Of a stretch of 64,000 bases of DNA, positions 1 to 57,526 are shown one piece after another. A model generated the notes under the pieces. It had not been told where the DNA came from. It saw only the letters and a list, made by a program, of their open reading frames with translations, and made no database searches. A program made the position numbers and the translations under genes. Origin of the DNA: a virus (taxonomy: Duplodnaviria; Caudoviricetes); the IMG/VR virus record IMGVR_UViG_3300031555_004728, positions 211,513 through 275,512 of that record; one strand, 5' to 3'. Position 1 is the stretch's first letter. Every line of letters starts with the position of its first letter.

Positions 1-1370
1 GGAATATTTCCAAGTTCGATTTCTTCCCAAAGATCTTCAAATGTATAATTAATATATTTATTATCATTATCATCTTCAGGTTTATTTTCTTTAATTCTGA
101 TTCTAGCAGAACCATCAACACAGCCCATAGGTGCAATAATTTCACCGTATTTATGCCACATTTCTGCTACAGTTGTATCTCCATCAAGAGATAAATAATC
201 AGGATACATAGCTTTTGATGAGCAATCTAATGCTTCTTCAAAAAGCCATTCCAATTCTTTTCCCGGTCCATGTAAATCCTCAGTATATGTAAATACTAAT
301 TTAGGGAAAAGAACTGATTTCTTTTTACCTGGTGCTCCTTGCCCTTCTTTTCTAACTTTAAGACAAATAGATGCTGCTAAACTAGCAAACTTATCTGTTG
401 AAACACCGATTGTGAATGTAGTAAATGGATAATCTCCTCTACTACTTGCTACAGTATTAAGTTTAATTTCAAGACCTTGGAAACCTTGTTCCATATCTCT
501 TATAACTTTTGCCATTGCTTCATCTTCTGCTTCTTTAAATAATAGTGCTTTCATTTCATCTGTAATTTCAACACCTATAGTACTTAGAGCAGATAATAAT
601 GAATTAAGTTTTGATTCATAAATACCACTTTTATATTTATCAAAACTTAATTTAGCATATTTGGATACTAACTCATCAATACGTGGAACTGTAAAACCAC
701 CGTATTGCTGACTTGCTGCGGATAAAATAATATCACCGATAACGTCAAATGTCGTATCGAGTGATTTTGGTTCATTATACCAGAGATTACCCATCTCAAA
801 TCCACCAGTTAAAACAGTTTTAACATCAAAAAGACAACAGTTGATACCGTCTCTTCGAGAACTCATATCATGAATGTAAATATATCCATCTCTACATGCC
901 TGTAACATCTTTTTATTTAACTGGAATTTTTGGTATAATTCTTTGTTAAGTTGTCCAAAAATAAGACTACGTTTAGTAGATACTAACGTAGAATCTGAAT
1001 TTGCATTTTCTTTATCACCGATATACATAATAGCTTGTGCTTTTTTATAGATAGAATCTATCATTGCGACAAATGAGGTTTTGTAATCACGATAGTCTCT
1101 ATAACTTTTTGCTACTTCAGGTGCAATTTCTTCTAACACTTTTTCTACTATATTATGCATCATTGGTACGGTTATATATCCATTACCATCTTCTTCTTTT
1201 ACCCAGTATTCTTTATTATGAATACTTTCATTTGCAAATTCTTTAATACGTCTAATTTCTTCATCAGAGAATTTATAAAGAACTCTGAATGCAGATTTTT
1301 TAACAGCATTAATGATCTTATCTACATTAAAAGGCTGTATCGTATTATCCTTTTTAATAATATAAATCAT
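1..1370 (-). CDS. nrdD: Anaerobic (class III) ribonucleoside-triphosphate reductase, 5' part; runs off the window start
   Basis: Not in the ORF track; hand translation from ATG at 1370 (RBS GGAGG) gives MIYIIKKDNTIQPFNVDKIINAVKKSA (ATP cone), KENANSD, YIHDM, NCCLFD, SQQYGGFTV and FPKLVF. Confidence 0.95.
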   Translation of the reverse strand, partial: MIYIIKKDNTIQPFNVDKIINAVKKSAFRVLYKFSDEEIRRIKEFANESIHNKEYWVKEEDGNGYITVPMMHNIVEKVLEEIAPEVAKSYRDYRDYKTSFVAMIDSIYKKAQAIMYIGDKENANSDSTLVSTKRSLIFGQLNKELYQKFQLNKKMLQACRDGYIYIHDMSSRRDGINCCLFDVKTVLTGGFEMGNLWYNEPKSLDTTFDVIGDIILSAASQQYGGFTVPRIDELVSKYAKLSFDKYKSGIYESKLNSLLSALSTIGVEITDEMKALLFKEAEDEAMAKVIRDMEQGFQGLEIKLNTVASSRGDYPFTTFTIGVSTDKFASLAASICLKVRKEGQGAPGKKKSVLFPKLVFTYTEDLHGPGKELEWLFEEALDCSSKAMYPDYLSLDGDTTVAEMWHKYGEIIAPMGCVDGSARIRIKENKPEDDNDNKYINYTFEDLWEEIELGNI

Positions 1371-1396
1371 ATCATAAACCTCCAATTAATATGAAT

Positions 1397-1408
1397 TAAA
1401 AGAATGTT
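1397..1408 (-). promoter_or_regulatory. Phage late-type promoter AACA-N6-TA upstream of nrdD
   Basis: Minus strand reads AACAttctttTA; the same motif is found at more than 10 other intergenic sites. Confidence 0.6.
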
Positions 1409-1444
1409 TTTTGGTGTATGAAATGGTAAAATATAAATTACTGA

Positions 1445-1526
1445 GAACCAATTTTGTTAAGTTAAATTTCTCTATTTCTCGATAATTTACGAAGAATACA
1501 GAAAACTTACTTAACAAAACTGCAAC
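1445..1526 (+). repeat. 82-bp palindromic site, copy 1
   Basis: GAACCAATTTTGTTAAGT...TCGATAATTTACGA...ACTTAACAAAACTGCAAC, dyad-symmetric about 1485/1486; near-identical copies at 1845 and 8844-8925. Confidence 0.95.
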
Positions 1527-1817
1527 CAGCAAGATCTTGAAACTTATATATCATCATCCACAATGCCATATGTATTTATAACATGTAGAGAAACTGATTC
1601 TACTGAAGTTGTAGATATCTTAAATTGTATACTTGATGAATTACCTAATGATATTTTATTTGGTATTAGGTTAGAAGGTCATAATATTCCAAGACAGTTT
1701 GGATCAGGGTATTTATATGATAATAGTAATTATGGTTCACTAATATTATCTACATGGGATGCACCTGCATTTTTTAGAATTTATAATAAAGAAATAACAA
1801 GAATAGTTTTAACCTAG
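1515..1817 (+). CDS. Start-less cassette 1, putative tail-fibre tip variant (100 aa; includes track ORF 1563..1817)
   Basis: Frame opens right after the TAA in the repeat: QNCNQQDLETYISSSTMPYV...; no RBS before the internal ATG; homologous to cassette 2 (GSGYLY/GTGFVY, GSLILST/GTFILSS, RIYN/RILN). Confidence 0.7.
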   Translation, partial: QNCNQQDLETYISSSTMPYVFITCRETDSTEVVDILNCILDELPNDILFGIRLEGHNIPRQFGSGYLYDNSNYGSLILSTWDAPAFFRIYNKEITRIVLT

Positions 1818-1844
1818 TTTTGTTTGAACTATAAATGGATAGTG

Positions 1845-1926
1845 GAACCAATTTTGTTAAGTTAACTTTCTCTATCTTTCGATAATTTCCTTTGATTACA
1901 GAAATCTTACTTAACAAAACTGCAAC
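1845..1926 (+). repeat. 82-bp palindromic site, copy 2
   Basis: Direct repeat of copy 1 exactly 400 bp downstream; identity extends through CAGCAAGA to 1934. Confidence 0.95.
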
Positions 1927-2214
1927 CAGCAAGAAATTATAAATTGTATAGAATCCAATCATATATGGCTTTCCGATAATACTGGTGAAGATATTACAAC
2001 ATCTGTATATAATTTAGCAACATTTTTCCCAATTAATACATCATTCTGTTGCATACTTCAAACACCATCTGGTATTTGGAATGGTACAGGTTTTGTATAT
2101 AAAGGAGCTGAAAATCAATTAAATGGGACATTCATATTATCAAGTGTTGCAGGTATATGTACTGTAAGAATATTAAATGGATATGCACTAGGACAAATGT
2201 TATATACATTTTAA
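1915..2214 (+). CDS. Start-less cassette 2, putative tail-fibre tip variant (99 aa)
   Basis: Missed by the ORF track; open frame QNCNQQEIINCIESNHIWLSDNTGEDITTSVYNLATFFPINTSFCCILQTPSGIWNGTGFVYKGAENQLNGTFILSSVAGICTVRILNGYALGQMLYTF*; the only Met is 5 residues from the end. Confidence 0.7.
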   Translation, partial: QNCNQQEIINCIESNHIWLSDNTGEDITTSVYNLATFFPINTSFCCILQTPSGIWNGTGFVYKGAENQLNGTFILSSVAGICTVRILNGYALGQMLYTF

Positions 2215-2215
2215 A

Positions 2216-2248
2216 AATAGAGAAGATGGAATTTCCATCTTCTCTATT
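2216..2248. terminator. Bidirectional intrinsic terminator
   Basis: AATAGAGAAGATGGA/TCCATCTTCTCTATT stem between cassette 2 and the convergent gene. Confidence 0.8.
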
Positions 2249-2251
2249 TAA

Positions 2252-3280
2252 TTATCTAAGATCATTAATAACTACAGCTGGATCATCTTCTTCAACTACC
2301 AAGTAATTATTACCACCACGTGATACTTCAGCAATTTCTCCACCATTAATAGTAAGAGTACATTTCTTGAATGTACCACTAGCATCAGTACTTGTGTTAG
2401 GTTTTTCAGGAGAACCAGCAAATGGAATTTCTCCACCAGCAAATAACTTATTAATAGTTCCTCCATTAATTACCATATCGATAGTATTCATTGTACCACG
2501 ATTGATACCTTGAAGAATATTAATATTACCACCATTAACAACCAAAACACCCGTTCCTTCGTGACCATTAGAACCTCCTACTGTAACATATGTTTCTGCA
2601 ACAAAATCACCATCGATAATCATTGATAATGATTTAGCATATGAATATCCGTTTCCACCACCGTAAACAAGATTTTCACAAGTTCCACCTGTAAGTTCCA
2701 TTGTAATGTCTTCTACAATATTCCATGTATTATCAATATCACCATCATATTTAACTGATGAGCATGTACATGTATTAATCCATCTATCTGCTCCACCACC
2801 ACGAATATTTCTACATTTACCACCTGTCATTTTAACAACAGCTTTTACAGTGTGTGATTTATGAAGACCACCACCAAATACGTGTTTAACATATCCACCT
2901 TCAATAGTTACACTTGTATTTGTAAGTGTTTCATCATCATGTCTTCCACCAAATAAATTAAGTGTTGGTCCTGCAAGAATTTCTCCACCATCCCATGTAA
3001 TAAGGCAACCTTCTTCTCCATCAGGTCTTTCCTTTACAACAACTGGTGTACCATTAGCAAAGAAGAATTCTTCACCTTCAAGAATAATAAGTTCTGTACT
3101 AGGTTCATCAACTTTAGCAGAAACTGAATTAATGAATGTCTCATTAACCATAGTTCTTACAATCTCTTCTACATCGGCTGTTGTAGCGATAGGAGCATTG
3201 TTTGCTTTTTCTTGTTGCTCTCTGATCTCTTTACATGTTTCACCGATGAAACCAAGTAAGGTTTTATTTTTAGTAGACAT
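2252..3280 (-). CDS. Gly-rich beta-solenoid repeat protein
   Basis: Repeated units such as V.MTGG...N.YGGG and INGG.I..LFAGG; RBS and AACA-N6-TA (3310-3321) upstream. Confidence 0.6.
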   Translation of the reverse strand: MSTKNKTLLGFIGETCKEIREQQEKANNAPIATTADVEEIVRTMVNETFINSVSAKVDEPSTELIILEGEEFFFANGTPVVVKERPDGEEGCLITWDGGEILAGPTLNLFGGRHDDETLTNTSVTIEGGYVKHVFGGGLHKSHTVKAVVKMTGGKCRNIRGGGADRWINTCTCSSVKYDGDIDNTWNIVEDITMELTGGTCENLVYGGGNGYSYAKSLSMIIDGDFVAETYVTVGGSNGHEGTGVLVVNGGNINILQGINRGTMNTIDMVINGGTINKLFAGGEIPFAGSPEKPNTSTDASGTFKKCTLTINGGEIAEVSRGGNNYLVVEEDDPAVVINDLR

Positions 3281-3375
3281 AATAGCTACCTTCCTTTCTT
3301 TTATAATATTAATAAACTGTTTTTAAGTCCATTTTTTAGACATTATTTTAAATTATTATTAGGAGGAAATTTAAG

Positions 3376-3621
3376 ATGTTTTCTGTTGAGAAATTAAATG
3401 AAATTAAATCTGAACTTGCAACTGTTTTAGAATCTGCTGAAAAAGAAGAAAAAGATCCGGTTGCTGAATTAGAGCAAAAAATAGAAGATATTAAGAAAAA
3501 AGAAACTAGAGGTTTTATTTCAAAAGAAGAAGCTGAAGAAGGAATTTCAGATCTTCAAAAGAAATTAAAAGAAATCAAAAAAGAACTTTCTGAAAAGAAA
3601 GAAGATAAAAAAGAAGATTAA
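3376..3621 (+). CDS. Small charged coiled-coil hypothetical protein
   Basis: AGGAGG RBS, E/K-rich ORF, terminator downstream. Confidence 0.75.
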   Translation: MFSVEKLNEIKSELATVLESAEKEEKDPVAELEQKIEDIKKKETRGFISKEEAEEGISDLQKKLKEIKKELSEKKEDKKED

Positions 3622-3624
3622 AAT

Positions 3625-3654
3625 AATCCTAGACTGAAAAATCAGTCTAGGATT
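3625..3654. terminator. Bidirectional intrinsic terminator
   Basis: AATCCTAGACTGA/TCAGTCTAGGATT stem between convergent genes. Confidence 0.8.
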
Positions 3655-3659
3655 TCTTT

Positions 3660-4238
3660 TTACAGAAGAATTGCTAATGCTTTAACATACTTATCTTTAA
3701 GAGAATCTGTTAAAGTATCATACAATTCAAAATGATGTTTGATGTCTGCAAGTTTAACAAACCATGCTGCTGAATATTGAGGTTTATTATCTTTTATCAT
3801 CTCAATATATGTATTGTATGGTTTTACAACTTTTGATTTTACTGGTTGATTGTCTTCATAATCGATATTTCTTGATACTAATTCAATACATGATATGATG
3901 TAATCTTCAATAACTGTATTGTGGATTTCAGATAAAATATTTCTTAAATCCTCAAGTGTTACATCAGTATCTTCAATTAAATCATGTGAAATACCAACTA
4001 TTTCAATTATGATTTCATCTTGGATTTCTAAAGCCATTCCTAACGTTCTTAACATTTCAGATGAATATTCAGCAACCTTTACAGCATGTTCATATGTAGC
4101 ATCATCATACTTAACAAGTGCAAGTTCTTTTATTTTTGCATTTACTGTTAATAATCTTCTTGTTTCATCTGGTAAAATTCTATCCCAGATAAAATTCATA
4201 TTTCTTGCATGATCAACTATCATTATTTTGTCCTCCAA
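3660..4238 (-). CDS. HD-domain phosphohydrolase, RelA/SpoT hydrolase (Mesh1/SAH)-like
   Basis: [22 protein letters not shown] and VKLADIKH motifs. Confidence 0.8.
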
Positions 4239-4441
4239 GTGATACGTCCTTTTGTTAAATCATATGGTGATATTTCAACAGTAACTTTATCACCTGGTAA
4301 GATTTTGATAAAATTCGTTCTTAGTTTTCCACTTATGTGTGCTAATACTTCATGGTCATTTTCAAGTTTAACCTTAAACATAGCACCTGGTAACTTTTCA
4401 GTTACAACACCTTCCAATTCAATAAAATCTTCTTTTGACAT
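4223..4441 (-). CDS. infA: Translation initiation factor IF-1
   Basis: [28 protein letters not shown]...[36 protein letters not shown], the canonical 72-aa IF-1. Confidence 0.98.
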
Positions 4442-4457
4442 TACATTTTCTCCTTCT

Positions 4458-4949
4458 TTATTTATATTGAGTATTCATTATATTATGTGCAATTATTTGC
4501 ATATCTATTTTTTGATATTCTCCATTAAAGTCTGTTGCTAAACCTACCATACGTTTAGCAATACCTTCAATCAAATACTTTTCAGCAATTTCTCTACTGG
4601 TATCTACAATTTTATGTGCAACTTGATCTGCAGATTTTTGATACTCATCAGTTTCAAGCAATGCTGCAACTTTATCATTTAGTACCTTATATACATTATC
4701 CGAAACTATCTTTCTAAAAGATGTCATCTTTTCATATGTATAAGTACTTGTATTAGGTATTGATGCATCATTAAATGTGTTAAATACCATTCTTATCATA
4801 GAATCTATTTCATTCTCATTTAAGTATCTTTCTAGTACATCATCTGTTAAAATATCTTTTACTTTTTCACGGATGACTTCTTTTGTAGTCTCTTTAATAA
4901 TTTCATCCATGTTTGAATTTTCATTAGTTGTTTTCATATTTTCTGACAT
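4458..4949 (-). CDS. Hypothetical protein
   Basis: 163-aa ORF with AAGGAG RBS, within an operon. Confidence 0.7.
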
Positions 4950-4976
4950 AGTTTAAATCTCCTTTATTTTATATTC

Positions 4977-5804
4977 TTAAAAATAATATATCTTTGAAAA
5001 AATATCAAAATATGAATAATCAATATGGAAAATTGCATAATATAATTTAACACTTCCATTATCTTCAAATTCATCTGACATAAATTCTATATATGGTTTA
5101 TCTTTTTCTGTATAGAATGGAAATAACTGTATATTACCTTCTATTTCTGGAAAGTCTTTATATTTAATACTGAATTTCTTTTTCATGTTAATTATATCTG
5201 GTTCTTCTTCATCATTAATAAATAATGAAATAAATAATTCAATATTATTCTTAATGAGTTCTAACTCATCATTCATCTTTGAGACTAAAGAATTTGTTTT
5301 TTCTTCATCACAAACTTCAATGACACCTAATTCTTTAGCCCTTGATAAGATAATATCTTTATCTTCAAGATTTTCTTCAACGAGACTTTTTAACTCCGAT
5401 ATATCTCGGATAAAAATGAGTTCGTTAGTTTCATTTTTAAATAAAATCTCTTTCATACATTCTTCAAATTCATCTTTTATTTTAATAATGAATTTCCCTT
5501 TTAATGATTCCTGAGAGATAACTCCAGGAATGGAATATATACCATTGTAAATATATAGATCTTTTCTATATACTTTATTAAGTTTTATTAGAAGACTTTT
5601 TAAATCTTTGGTAAGTCGTGTTTTTTCTTTTTTAAACTCTCTTAAAGCTTTAGCTTCATCCATAAGTCTTCTTTTTAATTCTTTTAAACTTTTTAAATCA
5701 TGCTCTTGATTATAGATTTCATCAAAATTTTCATAACCAAGAGCAGTCATTCTTTTTTCTATATCTTTTATTAAGTCTATTCTTGTATCTACCATTCGAA
5801 TCAC
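4977..5804 (-). CDS. Hypothetical protein
   Basis: 275-aa ORF coupled to the upstream gene. Confidence 0.7.
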   Translation of the reverse strand: MIRMVDTRIDLIKDIEKRMTALGYENFDEIYNQEHDLKSLKELKRRLMDEAKALREFKKEKTRLTKDLKSLLIKLNKVYRKDLYIYNGIYSIPGVISQESLKGKFIIKIKDEFEECMKEILFKNETNELIFIRDISELKSLVEENLEDKDIILSRAKELGVIEVCDEEKTNSLVSKMNDELELIKNNIELFISLFINDEEEPDIINMKKKFSIKYKDFPEIEGNIQLFPFYTEKDKPYIEFMSDEFEDNGSVKLYYAIFHIDYSYFDIFSKIYYF

Positions 5805-6211
5805 CTATTATAGTTTACATATCTGACTAAGTCAAATGCTATAATTCTTAGTTTATTATCATTTTTATTTTTACTACCCAATGCTCTGAGTTTTAACTCA
5901 TAGTCTTTTTCCTTAAGATCTTCAAGAATATACACATATTCTTCTTTTATAGGTTTTACTATAATTTCTTCTTCTGTGAAACTAACTAATCTAGCTATTA
6001 TAGTTTTAGCATCCACTGTCATAAAATCAAGAATATTTTTAAATTTATTATCAATTCTAAGTGGATCATATGTTATAGGAAGACCGCAACCAAATATATT
6101 ATTTGATTTATTCTGTGCTTCGTATATTTGTTCTTTTACTAAATCTATATGAATAGATTTAGTTCCTAATATAAAATCAGCTTTATCTCTTTTAAATATT
6201 ATATTCTTCAT
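5801..6211 (-). CDS. Hypothetical protein
   Basis: 136-aa ORF directly after the DNA polymerase gene. Confidence 0.65.
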   Translation of the reverse strand: MKNIIFKRDKADFILGTKSIHIDLVKEQIYEAQNKSNNIFGCGLPITYDPLRIDNKFKNILDFMTVDAKTIIARLVSFTEEEIIVKPIKEEYVYILEDLKEKDYELKLRALGSKNKNDNKLRIIAFDLVRYVNYNR

Positions 6212-6213
6212 GA

Positions 6214-8097
6214 TTATACTCCTAAGTCTTTACATGCTTTCTTATATAATTTATCCAACGATGGTAAATTAAACCATTTTCTACCAGTACATAACCAGTT
6301 TTTAGTTTGGAAATTATCAAAAGCTTCTTTAGCAACATCATCATGAAAATCTGATGTTTCTTTTGGTAATAATCTGACATTAGTTATAGTATGAACTTTT
6401 CTTGGACCACCAAGTACATTAAATTGACCTGCATCAAGAATACACTTAAAGTGTAATGTACTAGGGTCAATATTCATGGCGAATATTGTACTTGGATAGA
6501 AACTACTCATATCCATATCTATAGCATATTGGAATATATTATTTGACTTTTTACTTCCATATAAAGCCATACCAGTTGGAAGATTTAATCTAGGATCACC
6601 TACAAGTGCACCCTCGAATCCAACTTTTTTCTTATCATCATCATCATCCTCATCTGGTTCTTCATCACTACCAAATGGTGTTAGGTTTATATTTTCACCA
6701 GGAACCATTCCACGTGTTAAGAAATCCAAATATTGATAATTCCTAAGTTTTACAGTTTGTTTAAATTCTGAATCGTATGGTGTTATATTTTGATATGCCG
6801 TAGCATAATAGTTTTCTAAATCTTTAGTTTTATCTTCAATACCTTTTTGAAGTAAAACGTCTTTGATGTTGTATATAAAATATTTCTTATAATTCTTATA
6901 AGAGAAATATTTAATACTTCCTTCTTCACCATAATCTAATTTAGAATCACCCACTACTTTTTTACCTATATAATTAAGTGAGAATGAACGTATTTCTGAT
7001 TGACCTTTTCTAATAGCCGCATACGTTCTCATCTGACATGTATAATTAGTATATGATGTATTAAAAAAGTAGTCTGTTTTTGATTTAATATCAAAATGAA
7101 AATTATCTTTTTTAAACCAGCATTCTTTAACTGGAAAATCTGGATGACAGAATAAATCCTTAGGATCTAATCCTAACTTCTGAGCACGCTTATAAATATA
7201 ATTAACGTCAAATTCGAAGTTCCAGAAAGTTACAAAATCAAATTTCCTTTTATTAATTAATTCAAAAAGATGAACTAACATCTTTTTTTCATCTTTATAG
7301 AAAAAGAATTTATAATCTAAGACTCCATATACATCATCAAACATCTCATGAAGTTCTTTCTTTATATCTTCTTGATGCTCGATAAAATCTATTTCCTGTT
7401 CAAGTCTACTTTTATGGAGTTCTCTTCTATATAATTCTTTATCTCTTTCACTTTGTGTCATATATGTTAAATCACGTTCAACATATTCACGTCCAACCAA
7501 AGCAAATGTGTAACACTTGGATTCATCGTTATCCACAAGTGTTACTAAATCAATAGGACATGTATCTGGATTAGCCAATCCTTCAACATCCAAAAAATCC
7601 GTCTCTATATCGGCAAATGCCTTTGATATAGGTTTAGGTCTTGAATTGTCATACATCATCATCCATTTATATCTATATAGTGCTCTTACATCATAATCAG
7701 CACCATATACAAATGGATACATTAAAAAATTCTTAAGTTCTGAGTATCTATGAGTTTTATAGATATCAGAGGCTTGTCTTTTTAAACCATCACCACCATC
7801 TTCAATTATGGCTGGTATAATATCTTTAAATGGTACACTTTTCTTTTCACACTTATCAAGATATTGATAGTTCAAACTGTATGGAACTCCATAAGGATCT
7901 AAATGTGTTGTCCTGTATTCTGGTTTTTCAAAGTATATGTCCACTGGTGGATTTGGTATTGTTGTAACGTGTTTTTCTTCTGTATCCAAATCTTTCCAAA
8001 CGATATATAAAATATCTGGAGTTCCTTCTTTTTTGTTTTCTTTTACGTATTGGATATCTACAAGCATTGCAGAATCCTTTGGTATAATTTTACCCAT
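6214..8097 (-). CDS. Family B DNA polymerase, N-terminal (exonuclease plus motif A) subunit of a split enzyme
   Basis: ExoI ADIETD, ExoII FWNFEFDVNY, ExoIII YNIKDV, GFEGALV and motif A DMDMSSFYPS; motifs B and C are absent. Confidence 0.85.
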   Translation of the reverse strand: MGKIIPKDSAMLVDIQYVKENKKEGTPDILYIVWKDLDTEEKHVTTIPNPPVDIYFEKPEYRTTHLDPYGVPYSLNYQYLDKCEKKSVPFKDIIPAIIEDGGDGLKRQASDIYKTHRYSELKNFLMYPFVYGADYDVRALYRYKWMMMYDNSRPKPISKAFADIETDFLDVEGLANPDTCPIDLVTLVDNDESKCYTFALVGREYVERDLTYMTQSERDKELYRRELHKSRLEQEIDFIEHQEDIKKELHEMFDDVYGVLDYKFFFYKDEKKMLVHLFELINKRKFDFVTFWNFEFDVNYIYKRAQKLGLDPKDLFCHPDFPVKECWFKKDNFHFDIKSKTDYFFNTSYTNYTCQMRTYAAIRKGQSEIRSFSLNYIGKKVVGDSKLDYGEEGSIKYFSYKNYKKYFIYNIKDVLLQKGIEDKTKDLENYYATAYQNITPYDSEFKQTVKLRNYQYLDFLTRGMVPGENINLTPFGSDEEPDEDDDDDKKKVGFEGALVGDPRLNLPTGMALYGSKKSNNIFQYAIDMDMSSFYPSTIFAMNIDPSTLHFKCILDAGQFNVLGGPRKVHTITNVRLLPKETSDFHDDVAKEAFDNFQTKNWLCTGRKWFNLPSLDKLYKKACKDLGV

Positions 8098-8160
8098 ATA
8101 AATACCTACTTTCTTTTAATATGAGTTTAAATTATTGTGCTTTGGTATATAAAAAAGAAC

Positions 8161-8194
8161 TATGATGAAGAAGACAAAAATCTTCTTCATCATA
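8161..8194 (-). terminator. Intrinsic terminator after cassette 3
   Basis: TATGATGAAGAAGA/TCTTCTTCATCATA stem. Confidence 0.75.
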
Positions 8195-8198
8195 TAAA

Positions 8199-8855
8199 TT
8201 AAATTGCCCAATATCCATCTACTGATATTAAACCTTCAATTTTATTAGTATTATCATATCCAGAACCACTTACTGTATAACATAATAATGCAAATCCAGT
8301 GTCCCATAATTCTCTTATATAATAATTTTTTACAAACCACATTCCACCATGCAACGTAAACTGTGGACAGGCATTATAAATATTAAATGGATAAAGACAT
8401 GCTGTTGATGGTGTACCTGCACTATCTGATGTTGCACCATTAATACCTGATGCTACACACCATGCTTTACAATAGCCATTTTGATATTTTATATAATTCC
8501 AGTTATTTATTTTACCGCTTTCTACCATAGGATTTTCACGAGCCCACGGTTCAAATTTACGTACAACTGTAACACCATCAGAGTCATGCATTGTTAAATA
8601 TGCTCTTCTATATACTCTTCCATTAATAGTTGTGAATTCTTGAAATTTATATATCCATGGAGATCCAGGTGAATTGAATGAACCGTTTCCATCATAAACC
8701 ATAAGTCTACCAGCAGAAACTTGTGGGAGATTTAAACATGTTTCTGCCTCAGTATTTCCTTTTACATAATATATACCACTATCTAAAACTGTATTAATAT
8801 CAACATTTTCTAAGTATCCTTTAATAATAACAAGATTTTGAGAGTTGCAGTTTTG
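8199..8855 (-). CDS. Start-less cassette 3, tail-fibre C-terminal region (pyocin-knob-like plus distal tip domain, 218 aa; includes track ORF 8199..8702)
   Basis: Frame opens after the repeat TAA: QNCNSQNLVIIKGYLENVDINTVLDSGIYYV...NLPQVSAGRLMV...QEFTTINGRVYRR...W, then VESGKINNWNYIKYQNGYCKAW...VDGYW, both typical phage fibre tip motifs; the track ATG falls mid-domain. Confidence 0.8.
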   Translation of the reverse strand, partial: QNCNSQNLVIIKGYLENVDINTVLDSGIYYVKGNTEAETCLNLPQVSAGRLMVYDGNGSFNSPGSPWIYKFQEFTTINGRVYRRAYLTMHDSDGVTVVRKFEPWARENPMVESGKINNWNYIKYQNGYCKAWCVASGINGATSDSAGTPSTACLYPFNIYNACPQFTLHGGMWFVKNYYIRELWDTGFALLCYTVSGSGYDNTNKIEGLISVDGYWAI

Positions 8856-8925
8856 TTAAGTAAGATTTCTGTAATCTTCGATAATTCTCTAAAGATAGAG
8901 AAATTTAACTTAACAAAATTGGTTC
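8844..8925 (-). repeat. 82-bp palindromic site, copy 3 (inverted relative to copies 1 and 2)
   Basis: Reverse complement GAACCAATTTTGTTAAGTTAAATTTCTCTATCTTTAGAGAATTATCGAAGATTACAGAAATCTTACTTAACAAAACTGCAAC aligns without gaps to copies 1 and 2. Confidence 0.95.
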
Positions 8926-9014
8926 ACACCCCTTTTTTCTTATAATTAATTTAGTATTAAATTATCAATTTAACAAATTTGTAATGTTTAACTTATATAA
9001 GGAGGTAAAAAATA

Positions 9015-25904: not shown

Positions 25905-26187
25905 TAACAAAATAGTTACCTAACCTCTTTAATTGCTGGAAACTCCTTAGAGTCTAAACTACCAAAGTGTAACAATGTTTAGAATTGGACAATCAGCAGC
26001 GAAGCTTCTTATTATAAGAAGAACGTTCAACGACTATCGAAAGCATAACATAAGAGAAAGACTTATGTGAAGAAGTGAGTAGAGTAGGATTTATAATCCG
26101 AAATGGGAGGCAATATTAATTTGGTAGTAGAATTAATATTGAAGATATAGTCTGAACTTTATAGAAATATAGAGATTAACATAGTTG
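25905..26187 (+). ncRNA. Group I intron (283 nt, no ORF) in the beta' catalytic motif
   Basis: P1 GGTGAT/GTTACC with U-G pair at the 5' splice site; P AATTGCTGGAAACTCC, Q AATCAGCAG, R GTTCAACGACTA, S AAGATATAGTC; terminal G; splicing restores DGDYDGDQ. Confidence 0.95.
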
Positions 26188-30416: not shown

Positions 30417-30875
30417 TTTCAAGTTATAAATCCGAGTCAAAAGAAAGTAAATATATAATAAAAAAGAACTAAATTAAAAATAAATTAATAAAAATAGTAA
30501 AAAAGAATTAAAAGATAATAAAAAATAATAAAAAGAATTAAAGATAATAAAAAAAGATTAAAAAATTAAAAATAATAAAAAAGAATTAAAAAAATTAAAT
30601 AAAAATTAAAAGATAATAAAAAATTAATAATAAAAATATTAAAGAGAAATAAAAAAATAAATAATAAAATTAAATAATAAAAATAAAAAAAAAATAAATA
30701 AAAAATAATAAAAAATAATAAGATAAACAAAATAAATAAAGGGGAGAAAGAAAAGAAAAATAAAGAAAATAAATAATAAAAAAAGAAAAAGAAAGAAGAT
30801 AATAAAAAAGAACGACGACGAAGGAGGAGTTCTTTTTTATTATATTTTTTTTTGACCCGAATTATTACTTGAAAC
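30417..30875. repeat. A-rich, almost C-free low-complexity tract flanked by about 50-bp imperfect inverted repeats
   Basis: Left arm GTTTCAAGT..GTCAAAA..TATAATAAAAAAGAACT is mirrored at about 30828-30875; interior made of AATAATAAAAAAGAATTAAAA-type repeats. Confidence 0.8.
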
Positions 30876-33616: not shown

Positions 33617-34208
33617 CTATAAGTATTGGATATTTTATGCGAATGAAACATACATAGATGAATTGACATGTCTCATTGATAAAGGTGATCTAATTTATGC
33701 ATATACAGATGATAAACAGATTGCAAATATATTTGAGATTTATCATGATATGTCTAAAATTAAAAAGAAACATGTAAATCTAACACGATTTGAAGTGAAT
33801 CAATTAGCAAGAGACCATCAAACTAAAATTATTAAAATGAGAAAATTCTTAACTAAAGATAAAGATGGTAAAAGAATGGAATTAAATATTCCAGTTACTG
33901 TAATGGAAGAGCAACATATAGATTTACAAATAATAGCTACACTAAATAAACTTATATATCAAGTAGTAAAAACACCATGTCCGGTTAAAATCTTTAAAGA
34001 AGAGATAGTTAAGGAATTTGAAAAGATAAGGTTATTTTCAATTATAAATCATTCTAAATTAAATGAAGATTATATAAATATCGGTAATGATTGTATTTTA
34101 TTTAGTGATAATCTTAAAAAAGGAAGTAAAATATTTGCAGATGAATTATCAATTTATATTCATTTATTTGGAAATATTTTAAATTTGAATATTGGAGGAG
34201 ATATTTAA
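33606..34208 (+). CDS. Paralogue family member 1 (YAxT..K...F...DM motif)
   Basis: LIYAYTDDKQIANIFEIYHDMSK; C-terminal DELSIYIHLFG. Confidence 0.75.
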   Translation: MKTNYKYWIFYANETYIDELTCLIDKGDLIYAYTDDKQIANIFEIYHDMSKIKKKHVNLTRFEVNQLARDHQTKIIKMRKFLTKDKDGKRMELNIPVTVMEEQHIDLQIIATLNKLIYQVVKTPCPVKIFKEEIVKEFEKIRLFSIINHSKLNEDYINIGNDCILFSDNLKKGSKIFADELSIYIHLFGNILNLNIGGDI

Positions 34209-56314: not shown

Positions 56315-57526
56315 TAATATCCTAGCTCACAAAGTATAGTAATATACTTTTAGGAAACCTCTTTAATTGCTGGGAACTCTTGTTAGGTCTTAGATACCAA
56401 AGTGTAACAATTCTAAGAATAGAGACAATCAGCAGCGAAGCTAAATTATTAAAAATACTATGAAAAAACATGGTAAAAACTCTTTAAAAAGTTATCTAGA
56501 TAATTATATTGTAAATGATAACTTTGAAGAGAGAATTATATTTATAAATGGCGAAGAAACCCATTATAGAATTAGAAGTAATGGTGAAATAATTTCAACG
56601 GAATATCAAGGTAAAAAACGAAAAATACCTCATATTATGATTGGTGGAATTGATAAAGATGGATATAGATTAGTTACGTTAACTCATAATAAAGTTAAAC
56701 GTACATATCGAATTCATAGATTGGTTGCAGAATATTTTATTCCAAATCCATTTAATAAACCAGAAGTTAATCATAAAGATGGCAATAAACTAAATAATGA
56801 TATTTCAAATTTAGAATGGGCGTATCAATGGGAAAATTCTGAACATGCAGTAGTTACTGGTTTAAAATCAGGAGTTAATTCTTCAGAATATATACATTTA
56901 GTTTGTCAATTATTAGAAAGTAATCTTTATAGTATGAAAGAAATTTCTAATATAACTGGTATAGAATATGAATTGGTTGTAAAAATACATTCTGGTTATT
57001 GCTATAAACATATAGCAGATCAATATAAAATAAGCAATTATAACCAATCCGATCATATTGATAAACGAGAATACGAACTTATTGACGATGATACTATTAA
57101 AAATATTTGTATTGAATTAGTTAATGGGTATTTAAATATATCAGAATTATCTAAAAAATACAATGTTTCAAAAACTACAATAAAACGTATTCTCAATCAT
57201 GAAACAAGAAAAGATATAACTTTGAATTATTCATTTAATGATTATAATACTAAAGGCATAAATCAGTTTATTAAAAATATAAAAGGATGTGATATTATAA
57301 ATGAAAATTTATAAAATTGATTCTTCGCTAAAAATATATAATAAAAAATAAAATAATTTAGAACGTTCAACGACTATCGAAAGCATAACTTAAGAGAAAT
57401 ACTTAAGTGAAGAAGCGAGTAGAGTACACTTATTATATAAGTGGAAATGGGAGGCATCTTATATTTGGTAATAGAATATGAGATGAAGATATAGTCTAAT
57501 CTTTATAGAGATATAAAGTATTAATG
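56315..57526 (+). mobile_element. Group I intron (1212 nt) with HNH homing endonuclease in gyrB
   Basis: P1 GTGAGT/GCTCAC with U-G pair; P/Q/R/S elements nearly identical to the beta' intron; terminal G at 57526; splicing gives SAGEFGIGITCCNALS. Confidence 0.95.
56460..57314 (+). CDS. Intron-encoded HNH homing endonuclease with C-terminal HTH-like repeats
   Basis: Y.I.SNG.I, DKDGY..V.L, HRLVAEYFIPNP.NKPEVNHKDGNKLNN.ISNLEW. Confidence 0.92.
   Translation: MKKHGKNSLKSYLDNYIVNDNFEERIIFINGEETHYRIRSNGEIISTEYQGKKRKIPHIMIGGIDKDGYRLVTLTHNKVKRTYRIHRLVAEYFIPNPFNKPEVNHKDGNKLNNDISNLEWAYQWENSEHAVVTGLKSGVNSSEYIHLVCQLLESNLYSMKEISNITGIEYELVVKIHSGYCYKHIADQYKISNYNQSDHIDKREYELIDDDTIKNICIELVNGYLNISELSKKYNVSKTTIKRILNHETRKDITLNYSFNDYNTKGINQFIKNIKGCDIINENL

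Follow-up and report, generated by a model that had tools for sequence, protein, structure and literature searches.

Switching the tips of the tail fibers is how phages change or widen their host range, and the known switches (Gin, Cin, Min, Rin, and the shufflons) offer two to about seven alternatives in one small cluster. The closest described relative of the elements analyzed here appears to be the Rin system of bifidobacterial prophages, a shufflon described by Mavrich et al. (2018; PMC6109161), in which the phage itself encodes an "armless" tyrosine recombinase of the XerD-like kind. The same description has one constant gene for the N-terminal portion of the receptor-binding protein, several variable C-terminal genes that lack a start and have a crossover site before each, and rearranged alleles seen in strain comparisons (PMC6109161).

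The window studied here, meaning the whole stretch of DNA that was analyzed (64,000 nucleotides), makes up the final 64 kb of the virus record G000, which is 275,512 bp long, with direct terminal repeats and 28.5% G+C. The window holds three copies of a palindrome of 82 bases that probably acts as a DNA recombination site: each copy would form a closed gate in front of a silent cassette for a tail-fiber tip, in a shufflon-like arrangement dispersed genome-wide. By cutting and rejoining DNA, this gut phage probably changes its host-binding tip. In the literature searched, no published description of such a system was found among the best-ranked matches, which does not prove that none is in print.

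Within the window, the arm motif of the palindrome matches six times, compared with 0.92 expected (none of 100 shuffles reaches six), and the motif of the right arm plus tail matches three times, compared with 0.11 expected. The copies in the window have a sharp left border and a right border that fades into coding sequence. Their features, in window coordinates, are as follows:

1445-1526, plus strand: element copy 1, from motif matches; 82 bases on inspection of the sequence
1445-1451, plus strand: left 7-nt end GAACCAA, invariant in 35/35 G000 copies; proposed left crossover (overlap) region
1452-1462, plus strand: left arm TTTTGTTAAGT, the same in 34/35 copies, with A for G at element position 12 in one; proposed recombinase-binding half-site
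1463-1508, plus strand: variable center ("stuffer") of 46 nt, with 22 variants among the 35 copies
1509-1519, plus strand: right arm ACTTAACAAAA, invariant in 35/35 copies, pairing with the left arm
1512-1514, plus strand: in-frame stop TAA of the right arm, read from the sequence
1520-1526, plus strand: right 7-nt end CTGCAAC, with CTGCAA invariant and the last base C or T; proposed joint or crossover region, at the meeting point of the shaft and tip coding sequences
1515-1817, plus strand: putative silent tip cassette 1, 100 codons and TAG, first ATG/GTG/TTG at codon 17, no family match (PHROG/Pfam)
1845-1926, plus strand: element copy 2, from motif matches
1915-2213, plus strand: putative silent tip cassette 2, 99 codons and TAA, first canonical start at codon 95 of 99
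8844-8925, minus strand: element copy 3, from motif matches
8926-8935, minus strand: G-rich, Shine-Dalgarno-like run directly upstream of element copy 3
8199-8855, minus strand: putative silent tip cassette 3, 218 codons and TAA, weak PHROG tail-fiber match (E 9e-4)

When the site at 1445-1526 was re-read, both arms, the TTTCT/AGAAA pairing, and the ends GAACCAA and CTGCAAC were all present as a preceding sequence-only reading had claimed, the TTTCT/AGAAA pairing being located inward of the arms. Each arm carries a TAA in frame, giving two in-frame stops within the palindrome. The minimum free energy of the site is -21.8 kcal/mol (z -5.07) as RNA of the sense strand and -33.9 kcal/mol (z -6.29) as RNA of the antisense strand. 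The genome of G000 (275,512 bp) has 35 full copies, all of one length, which span 29.5 to 220.4 kb on both strands and include the three in the window; a decayed copy, corresponding to the left arm, occurs besides at 185925. Element positions 1-21 are constant across the 35 copies save position 12 (a single copy), positions 62-81 are constant, and 30 copies have C and five have T at position 82, which bears out the claim that the outer arms are invariant (with one exception on the left) and that the asymmetric terminal 7 bp are conserved. The center is a mosaic of its variants; the claim that it varies stood, whereas its extent, given as the central 20 bp or so, had to be widened to about 30-40 positions (22-61), some columns of which are fixed.

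A G-rich run (GGGGG, GGAGGGG, and similar) abuts the first base of most of the 35 copies. Ordinary G000 genes have AAAGGAGG as their ribosome-binding site, 7-9 nt ahead of ATG, and these strong sites suggest to us a Gram-positive-type host. No Rfam model matches the element near its gathering score, the best score being 23.6 bits for a plant/animal microRNA model whose threshold is 63, and megablast against the INPHARED phages gives no match to window positions 1-9000. Scans of IMG/VR with exact and loose arms recover elements of just two species, that of G000 and that of its relative G001, all other matches being unrelated.

Every copy (35/35) is followed by an ORF, 90-276 codons long, whose open frame begins immediately past the TAA of the right arm (ACT TAA|CAA AAC TGC AAC). 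ATG, GTG, and TTG are absent from the first 30 codons in 20 of the 35 cassettes, and from the whole cassette in four. At none of the 35 copies does a long ORF read into the element, the longest upstream open stretch (52 codons) being the end of the neighboring cassette. A family scan (PHROG, Pfam) covered ten of the 35 G000 cassettes: five matched PHROG tail or tail-fiber families, five had no tail-family match, and one of the ten matched Pfam Gp10_C. In four of the five PHROG matches the alignment is C-terminal or nearly so (592-699 of 700, 598-696 of 700, 1005-1149 of 1150, and 788-1039 of 1096). From the matches among these ten and the context that the cassettes share, we read all 35 as receptor-binding tips without a shaft.

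Five relatives, G001-G005, were chosen via similarity of their DNA polymerases, and the closest, G001 (278,849 bp; polymerase 85% identical to that of G000), carries a homologous element in 17 intact copies, one right-truncated copy, and one split copy. The 35 G000 copies and the 17 G001 copies align gap-free over the element; the sole exception is a G001 copy in which 1 nt is inserted just past the right arm, ahead of the 7-nt end. The arms are kept between the two phages as TTT(T/A)GTTAAGT, the left arm in G001 being TTTAGTTAAGT. The left 7-nt end is GAACCAA in G000 and GACGGAA in the majority of the 17 G001 copies (a few differ in the first base), and the right one is CTGCAAC in G000 and TAGTAA(C/T/G) in G001; these ends are uniform inside each genome and differ at three positions per end between the genomes. 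In the sequence-only reading, covariation of central changes across the aligned copies had been named as the mark of a hairpin. The hairpin is kept across the phages, with 81.6% of 1,613 cells paired, compared with 28-49% when the partner column is slid (the accompanying shuffle control does not give a probability), and G000 and G001 differ by a compensatory change from U-A to A-U in the basal stem formed by the two arms. The G001 hairpin also contains G-U wobbles.

The polymerases of the more distant relatives, G002-G005, are 75-50% identical to that of G000, and BLAST with the element gives just short, weak matches there, the best in G002 covering 17 nt (E 0.16). A k-mer repeat search also finds no element in G002, which has no cassette homologues; its homologue of the shaft described below carries its own ordinary C-terminus and no gate. 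As a separate observation, G002 carries a perfect palindrome of 44 nt four times, with the flanks swapped (record positions 33691, 38495, 42655, and 44187; loci L135-L136). The swapped flanks suggest invertible segments, in a genome without a tyrosine recombinase.

Natural strains show directly one tip in both a fused and a gated allele, the same shaft fused a second time to a different stored tip, and the positions of the junctions. G000 and G001 have one shaft gene each, with 65% amino-acid identity over 384 residues; that of G000 (record positions 186101-187528, 475 aa) lies about 25 kb before the window. On a contig from another strain of the G001 species, L203, an intact palindrome is followed by a start-less cassette of 252 codons (LNSNMSSYLPLSGG...). 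Positions 1-939 of this contig equal G001 134760-135698, and positions 991-2358 equal G001 137332-138699, both at 100% identity; between them, G001 has 1,633 bp in place of palindrome positions 20-70, and its split copy at 135681 retains element positions 1-19 only. The insert comprises an upstream region, a ribosome-binding site, an ATG at 136210, and a shaft of ~375 aa, which enters the L203-type cassette in frame (...CAG ATT GAT ACA|CTA AAT AGT AAT ATG...) to give an ORF of 626 aa. The boundary of identity between G001 and L203 falls at element positions 70|71, exactly past the in-frame stop of the right arm.

A contig from a third strain, L288, has the same shaft on a second tip. It is 100% identical to G001 for 3,633 nt up to the joint and past it matches G001 153861-156363 at 100%; the two matches overlap by 11 nt, CTAAATAGTAA, which are element positions 71-81 and within which the right end TAGTAA(C/T/G) of G001 falls. 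The fused tip (LNSKNYPPTWTF...) is the cassette that G001 stores behind the intact palindrome at 153792, and L288 is without 16.5 kb present in G001 (137343-153860, loci L125-L126). This block is dispensable, if the L288 contig comes from a viable phage. In G000, the shaft/tip boundary reads GAT GAG CTA AAC TGC AAC CTG..., which has position 71 and positions 73-82 in common with the stored copies, and the fused tip is similar to a stored cassette. Upstream of the shaft gene, a left-arm remnant stops after GTTAAGTA in both phages, the remnant in G000 being the decayed copy at 185925. All fused alleles come from metagenome assemblies, in which chimeric joins via 11 nt are unlikely. The joints, from position 71 in G001, at positions 71-81 in L288, and with positions 71 and 73-82 shared in G000, agree with the argument of the sequence-only reading that joining occurs at the right edge, within or just before CAAAACTGCAAC, and not at the dyad center. 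The exact cleavage point (AA|C) cannot be placed, because the partners are identical across positions 71/73-82.

If the palindromes are recombination gates, each cassette would be silenced both by lacking a start codon and by the two in-frame stops inside the palindrome. The one expressed fiber gene of G000 (186101-187528) would comprise a promoter, a ribosome-binding site, and a shaft of ~375 aa, followed by a tip, and this expressed module would sit inside a split element, preceded by the element's left end and arm, with the right 7-nt end exactly at the shaft/tip boundary. Each palindrome would amount to two back-to-back half-sites, an arm plus a 7-nt overlap per flank. Recombination within CTGCAAC, between the expressed gene and a stored copy, would fuse the shaft to a new tip, and recombination on the left side (GAACCAA plus arm) could also swap the shaft module for the center of a palindrome. 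Switching is presumably frequent enough to matter in one infection cycle. A more specific version, which we hold only tentatively, casts the palindrome as a heterospecific pair of sites (GAACCAA plus arm; arm plus CTGCAAC), at which a 1.6-kb promoter-plus-shaft module might be traded for the 46-51-nt center of any one gate among the 35. Such trading would amount to recombinase-mediated cassette exchange in nature, providing 35 tips for one jumbo phage, and side reactions (inversions or deletions between gates) might have scrambled the genome relative to that of the sister phage.

One tyrosine recombinase is encoded in G000 and one in G001, and none in the four relatives G002-G005; neither a serine recombinase nor a Y1 transposase was found in G000 or G001. 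Because G000 and G001 are close relatives, the co-occurrence of recombinase and element is one evolutionary event. The G000 recombinase (341 aa, 202143-203168) has a SAM-like domain and a catalytic domain. It scores 238.8 bits on the XerA-type model NF040815, above the cut-off of 220, and falls below the cut-offs of the integron-integrase model TIGR02249 (91.9 bits; cut-off 265) and of PRK15417 (52.4 bits; cut-off 435). The counterpart in G001 shares 73% identity with it; small contigs carry further relatives at 35-44%. The gene adjoins no element. The arms of the element may resemble a Xer half-site; in neither genome is there an 11-6-11 site built from the arms (right arm, 4-9 nt, left arm; at most two mismatches per arm), and a scan for Xer/dif-type cores gave just the decayed copy, at 185945, and one chance-like match in G000, and none in G001. 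Each flank (a 7-nt end and the adjacent arm) is therefore proposed as a half-site with its overlap region; these proposed half-sites have no recognizable second arm, and the outer flanks are unlike the arms. We infer that the candidate Xer-like tyrosine recombinase does the cutting, with the 7-nt ends as the probable overlap regions. Conserved arms beside 7-nt ends that drift, while remaining uniform per genome, would be expected on this basis, since overlap regions need match only their partners. The recombinase could instead be an integrase for lysogeny.

The hairpin might be crossed in translation, by a bypass of the T4 gene 60 type. Each cassette would be translated alone, with ribosomes starting just upstream, stopping at the left-arm TAA, hopping 66 nt over the hairpin, re-pairing on a matching codon, and resuming decoding at AAC. 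In the frame of the ORF, the codon before the first stop does match, in both phages, the codon 66 nt downstream, outside the palindrome; the stop comes directly after the first codon of the pair, and the pair changes together, from TGT TAA ... TGC (both Cys) in G000 to AGT TAA ... AGT in G001, where the copy with the 1-nt insertion before AGT still has its ORF in the AGT frame. Matched codons, a stop or hungry codon, RNA structures, and an internal Shine-Dalgarno sequence are features of known bypass sites (bioRxiv 10.1101/2022.08.31.505936; PMC10732093). A strong G-rich run lies 9-10 nt upstream, the G-U wobbles of G001 keep the hairpin in sense-strand RNA only, and 13 of the 17 G001 copies have an in-frame ATG/GTG/TTG within five codons upstream (compared with 4 and 6 in the other frames). 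In G000, however, a canonical in-frame start is found in 11 of the 35 copies, no more than in the other frames (7 and 12), and at least nine copies are without even a near-cognate start by our own reading of the table. The nascent peptide would have just 4-9 residues, and the codon match is a single co-variation in two related phages. The fused alleles fully account for start-less ORFs that open at position 71, and skipping at the RNA or ribosome level, which the sequence-only reading had offered as its alternative, is not needed. We consider the hop unlikely; it is kept alive as a minor or additional reading because the G-rich run, the matched codon pair, and the excess of starts in G001 are not explained by recombination gates. 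That the G-rich, ribosome-binding-like run before most copies would have no role at such gates is counted against them.

Two further readings concern the DNA itself. The elements might be no more than dispersed 82-bp repeats, with a shaft now and then joined to a tip there by general recombination, homologous or through microhomology, and the tyrosine recombinase unrelated (e.g., an integrase). The L288 joint, which needs just 11 nt of identity and gave a 16.5-kb deletion, fits such an origin, and this loss could be a one-off short-homology deletion, not a programmed switch. Gains and losses of cassettes also occur with ends beyond the palindrome, no element is linked to the recombinase gene, and no canonical (11-6-11) core site was found, three points that are also counted against recombination gates. 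General recombination leaves unexplained, however, the palindromic design, the conserved arms beside ends that are uniform within and different between genomes, the constant length in 35 + 17 copies, and the confinement of the recombinase to element-bearing phages, and we regard it as improbable. Least credible, to the point that we all but discount it, is the idea that the palindrome is a selfish repeat of the MITE or REP kind, or an attC site as in integrons, and is unconnected with fiber expression. Such a site would have the terminal inverted repeats and the many dispersed copies seen here, and GTTAAGT/ACTTAAC fit GTTRRRY/RYYYAAC; yet 35/35 copies stand in one orientation and frame before a tip ORF, whereas a MITE-like repeat had been expected to be followed by unrelated sequence in random frames. 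The flanks, GAACCAA and CTGCAAC, show no target-site duplication, and the genomes have no Y1 transposase or serine recombinase. Against attC stand the score of the recombinase under the integron-integrase cut-off, the inside-out order of the boxes, and the lack of an array beside the recombinase gene. The likeness to the integron core that the sequence-only reading had pointed out, in inside-out order (GTTAAGT ... ACTTAAC), is real; membership among the integrons did not hold up, the recombinase being Xer-like.

Several other candidates were rejected. For excision and religation at the RNA level, no RtcB, T4 Rnl1-type, or Rnl2-type ligase was found in G000 or G001, the blank for Rnl1 being weak since that search matched no control genome. 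In T4 gene 38/25, a hairpin between the Shine-Dalgarno sequence and the start makes a split ribosome-binding site; here, most copies have no in-frame start after the hairpin. Looping out of the hairpin after a start at ATT (positions 7-9) would lead the reading of the G001 copy that has the 1-nt insertion into TAG. A suppressor tRNA or altered code was set aside, as aragorn finds no tRNA or tmRNA gene in the 275 kb of G000 and both TAA and TAG terminate ordinary ORFs. An operator palindrome in the center was dismissed with just one CGATAATTATCG-like site outside the elements, and poly-G phase variation of the start codon with no differences in G-run length between strains.

Strains also differ at individual copies. 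At the orthologous locus 29529, strain L018 has another center, the same as a variant found at three other G000 loci, with both flanks unchanged. In each of the sequencing runs X9 and X13, one contig joins window position 8206 to 8950 with 48 other letters between, and element copy 3 and cassette 3 are present or absent between strains as a unit; G001 has an unrelated 250-aa gene at this locus (window 8207-8949). The strain difference at 8207-8949 ends outside the palindrome, so cassettes also come and go by other routes. Contigs of the four DNA runs break at the repeat, and the joints between elements in these runs (e.g., 1532 to 8928 on opposite strands, and 1934 back to 1445), with sides of 20-40 nt, were rejected as repeat artifacts. 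Among these contigs, no single sample showed variant joints.

Other features of the window were noted in passing. At window positions 126-130, one contig in runs X9 and X13 has 859 extra letters inside an anaerobic ribonucleotide-reductase-like gene (ORF 3-1385, minus strand), which could be an intron, intein, or homing-endonuclease insertion that is polymorphic between strains. At 5796-6216, a 136-codon ORF (5801-6211) is absent in X9 and X13, which have 7 letters instead. A stretch of ~380 nt at 30428-30810 is extremely A-rich and of low complexity, with many overlapping repeat families. Short hairpin-like stretches also occur in two dispersed direct repeats (26020-26174 and 57360-57518; 94% identical over 67 nt, 77% over 83 nt), possibly a repeated RNA or a regulatory element.

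On a larger scale, the alignment of G000 with G001 falls into 24 blocks whose order and strand are scrambled. Elements occur in 14 of the 23 inter-block gaps, and 33 of the 35 elements lie in these gaps, which amount to 83,931 of 275,512 bases (30%); this enrichment is partly trivial, because the cassettes are non-homologous between the two phages. Divergent junctions, at which the nearest upstream ORF is on the other strand, hold 20 of the 35 elements, compared with 43 of 271 junctions genome-wide.

One uncultivated gut phage apparently stores 35 different tips and its relative 17, and natural strains have the same shaft with different tips. If the Xer-like recombinase is responsible, a compact recombinase and a directional pair of sites may perform cassette exchange. 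Its activity would then explain the 24-block scrambling of phages whose polymerases are 85% identical, and the reserve receptor-binding domains of a phage lineage would be readable from metagenomes alone.

Known systems resemble these elements to different degrees. The bypasses of T4 gene 60 and the phiHau3 terminase likewise have a coding gap that starts at a stop, a hairpin, matching codons, and a Shine-Dalgarno-like element nearby. Unlike in gene 60, the gap here is at the very start of the ORF, with no long nascent peptide and often no start codon, and fused alleles exist at the DNA level, making bypass unnecessary. Integron cassettes are promoter-less, with an imperfect palindrome (attC) of conserved ends and variable center and an Xer-related tyrosine recombinase. 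The present cassettes resemble them in being promoter-less, in having palindromes with conserved ends and a variable center, and in the Xer-related recombinase; they differ in that here the palindrome lies ahead of the ORF and breaks translation, the boxes stand in reverse order (GTTAAGT ... ACTTAAC, against RYYYAAC ... GTTRRRY in attC), and the copies are dispersed, not in a single array. There is no attI/Pc platform here, the cassettes complete a protein and are not whole genes, and TIGR02249 and PRK15417 do not place the recombinase in the IntI subfamily. Nor does the element have the two inverted 11-bp arms around a 6-8-bp central region of a Xer/dif site, or the target-site duplication and varied contexts and frames of MITE or REP sequences.

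The R64 shufflon (Rci/sfx) and the Gin (Mu), Cin (P1), and Min (p15B) systems resemble the present one in joining alternative C-terminal adhesin or fiber ends at a constant/variable boundary. They are compact invertible clusters with short sites of about 19-31 bp (summarized in part in PMC6109161). Gin, Cin, and Min employ serine recombinases, a class found in neither G000 nor G001, and these systems are not known to have a palindromic gate or genome-wide dispersal, unlike G000. The likeness to Rin is closer, and comprises a phage-encoded tyrosine recombinase (here a candidate for the enzyme), a constant N-terminal part, start-less C-terminal parts with a repeated site, and rearranged alleles. 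As in a shufflon, one shaft gene per phage is accompanied by 35 start-poor ORFs in G000, and the repeated site stands at the boundary and before each variable part (positions 71-82; 7-nt end in 35/35). In Rin, the variable genes number a handful and cluster beside rin, and the rix site is asymmetric and 11 bp long (PMC6109161). Here, unlike in Rin, 35 cassettes (17 in the relative) are scattered across 190 kb of both strands, with no linkage to the recombinase gene, and the site is an 82-bp palindrome with two distinct 7-nt ends. In place of one invertible cluster beside the recombinase that switches by inversion, with no local inversion seen, the alleles of these phages display the exchange of a module for the center of a palindrome and a deletion of 16.5 kb.
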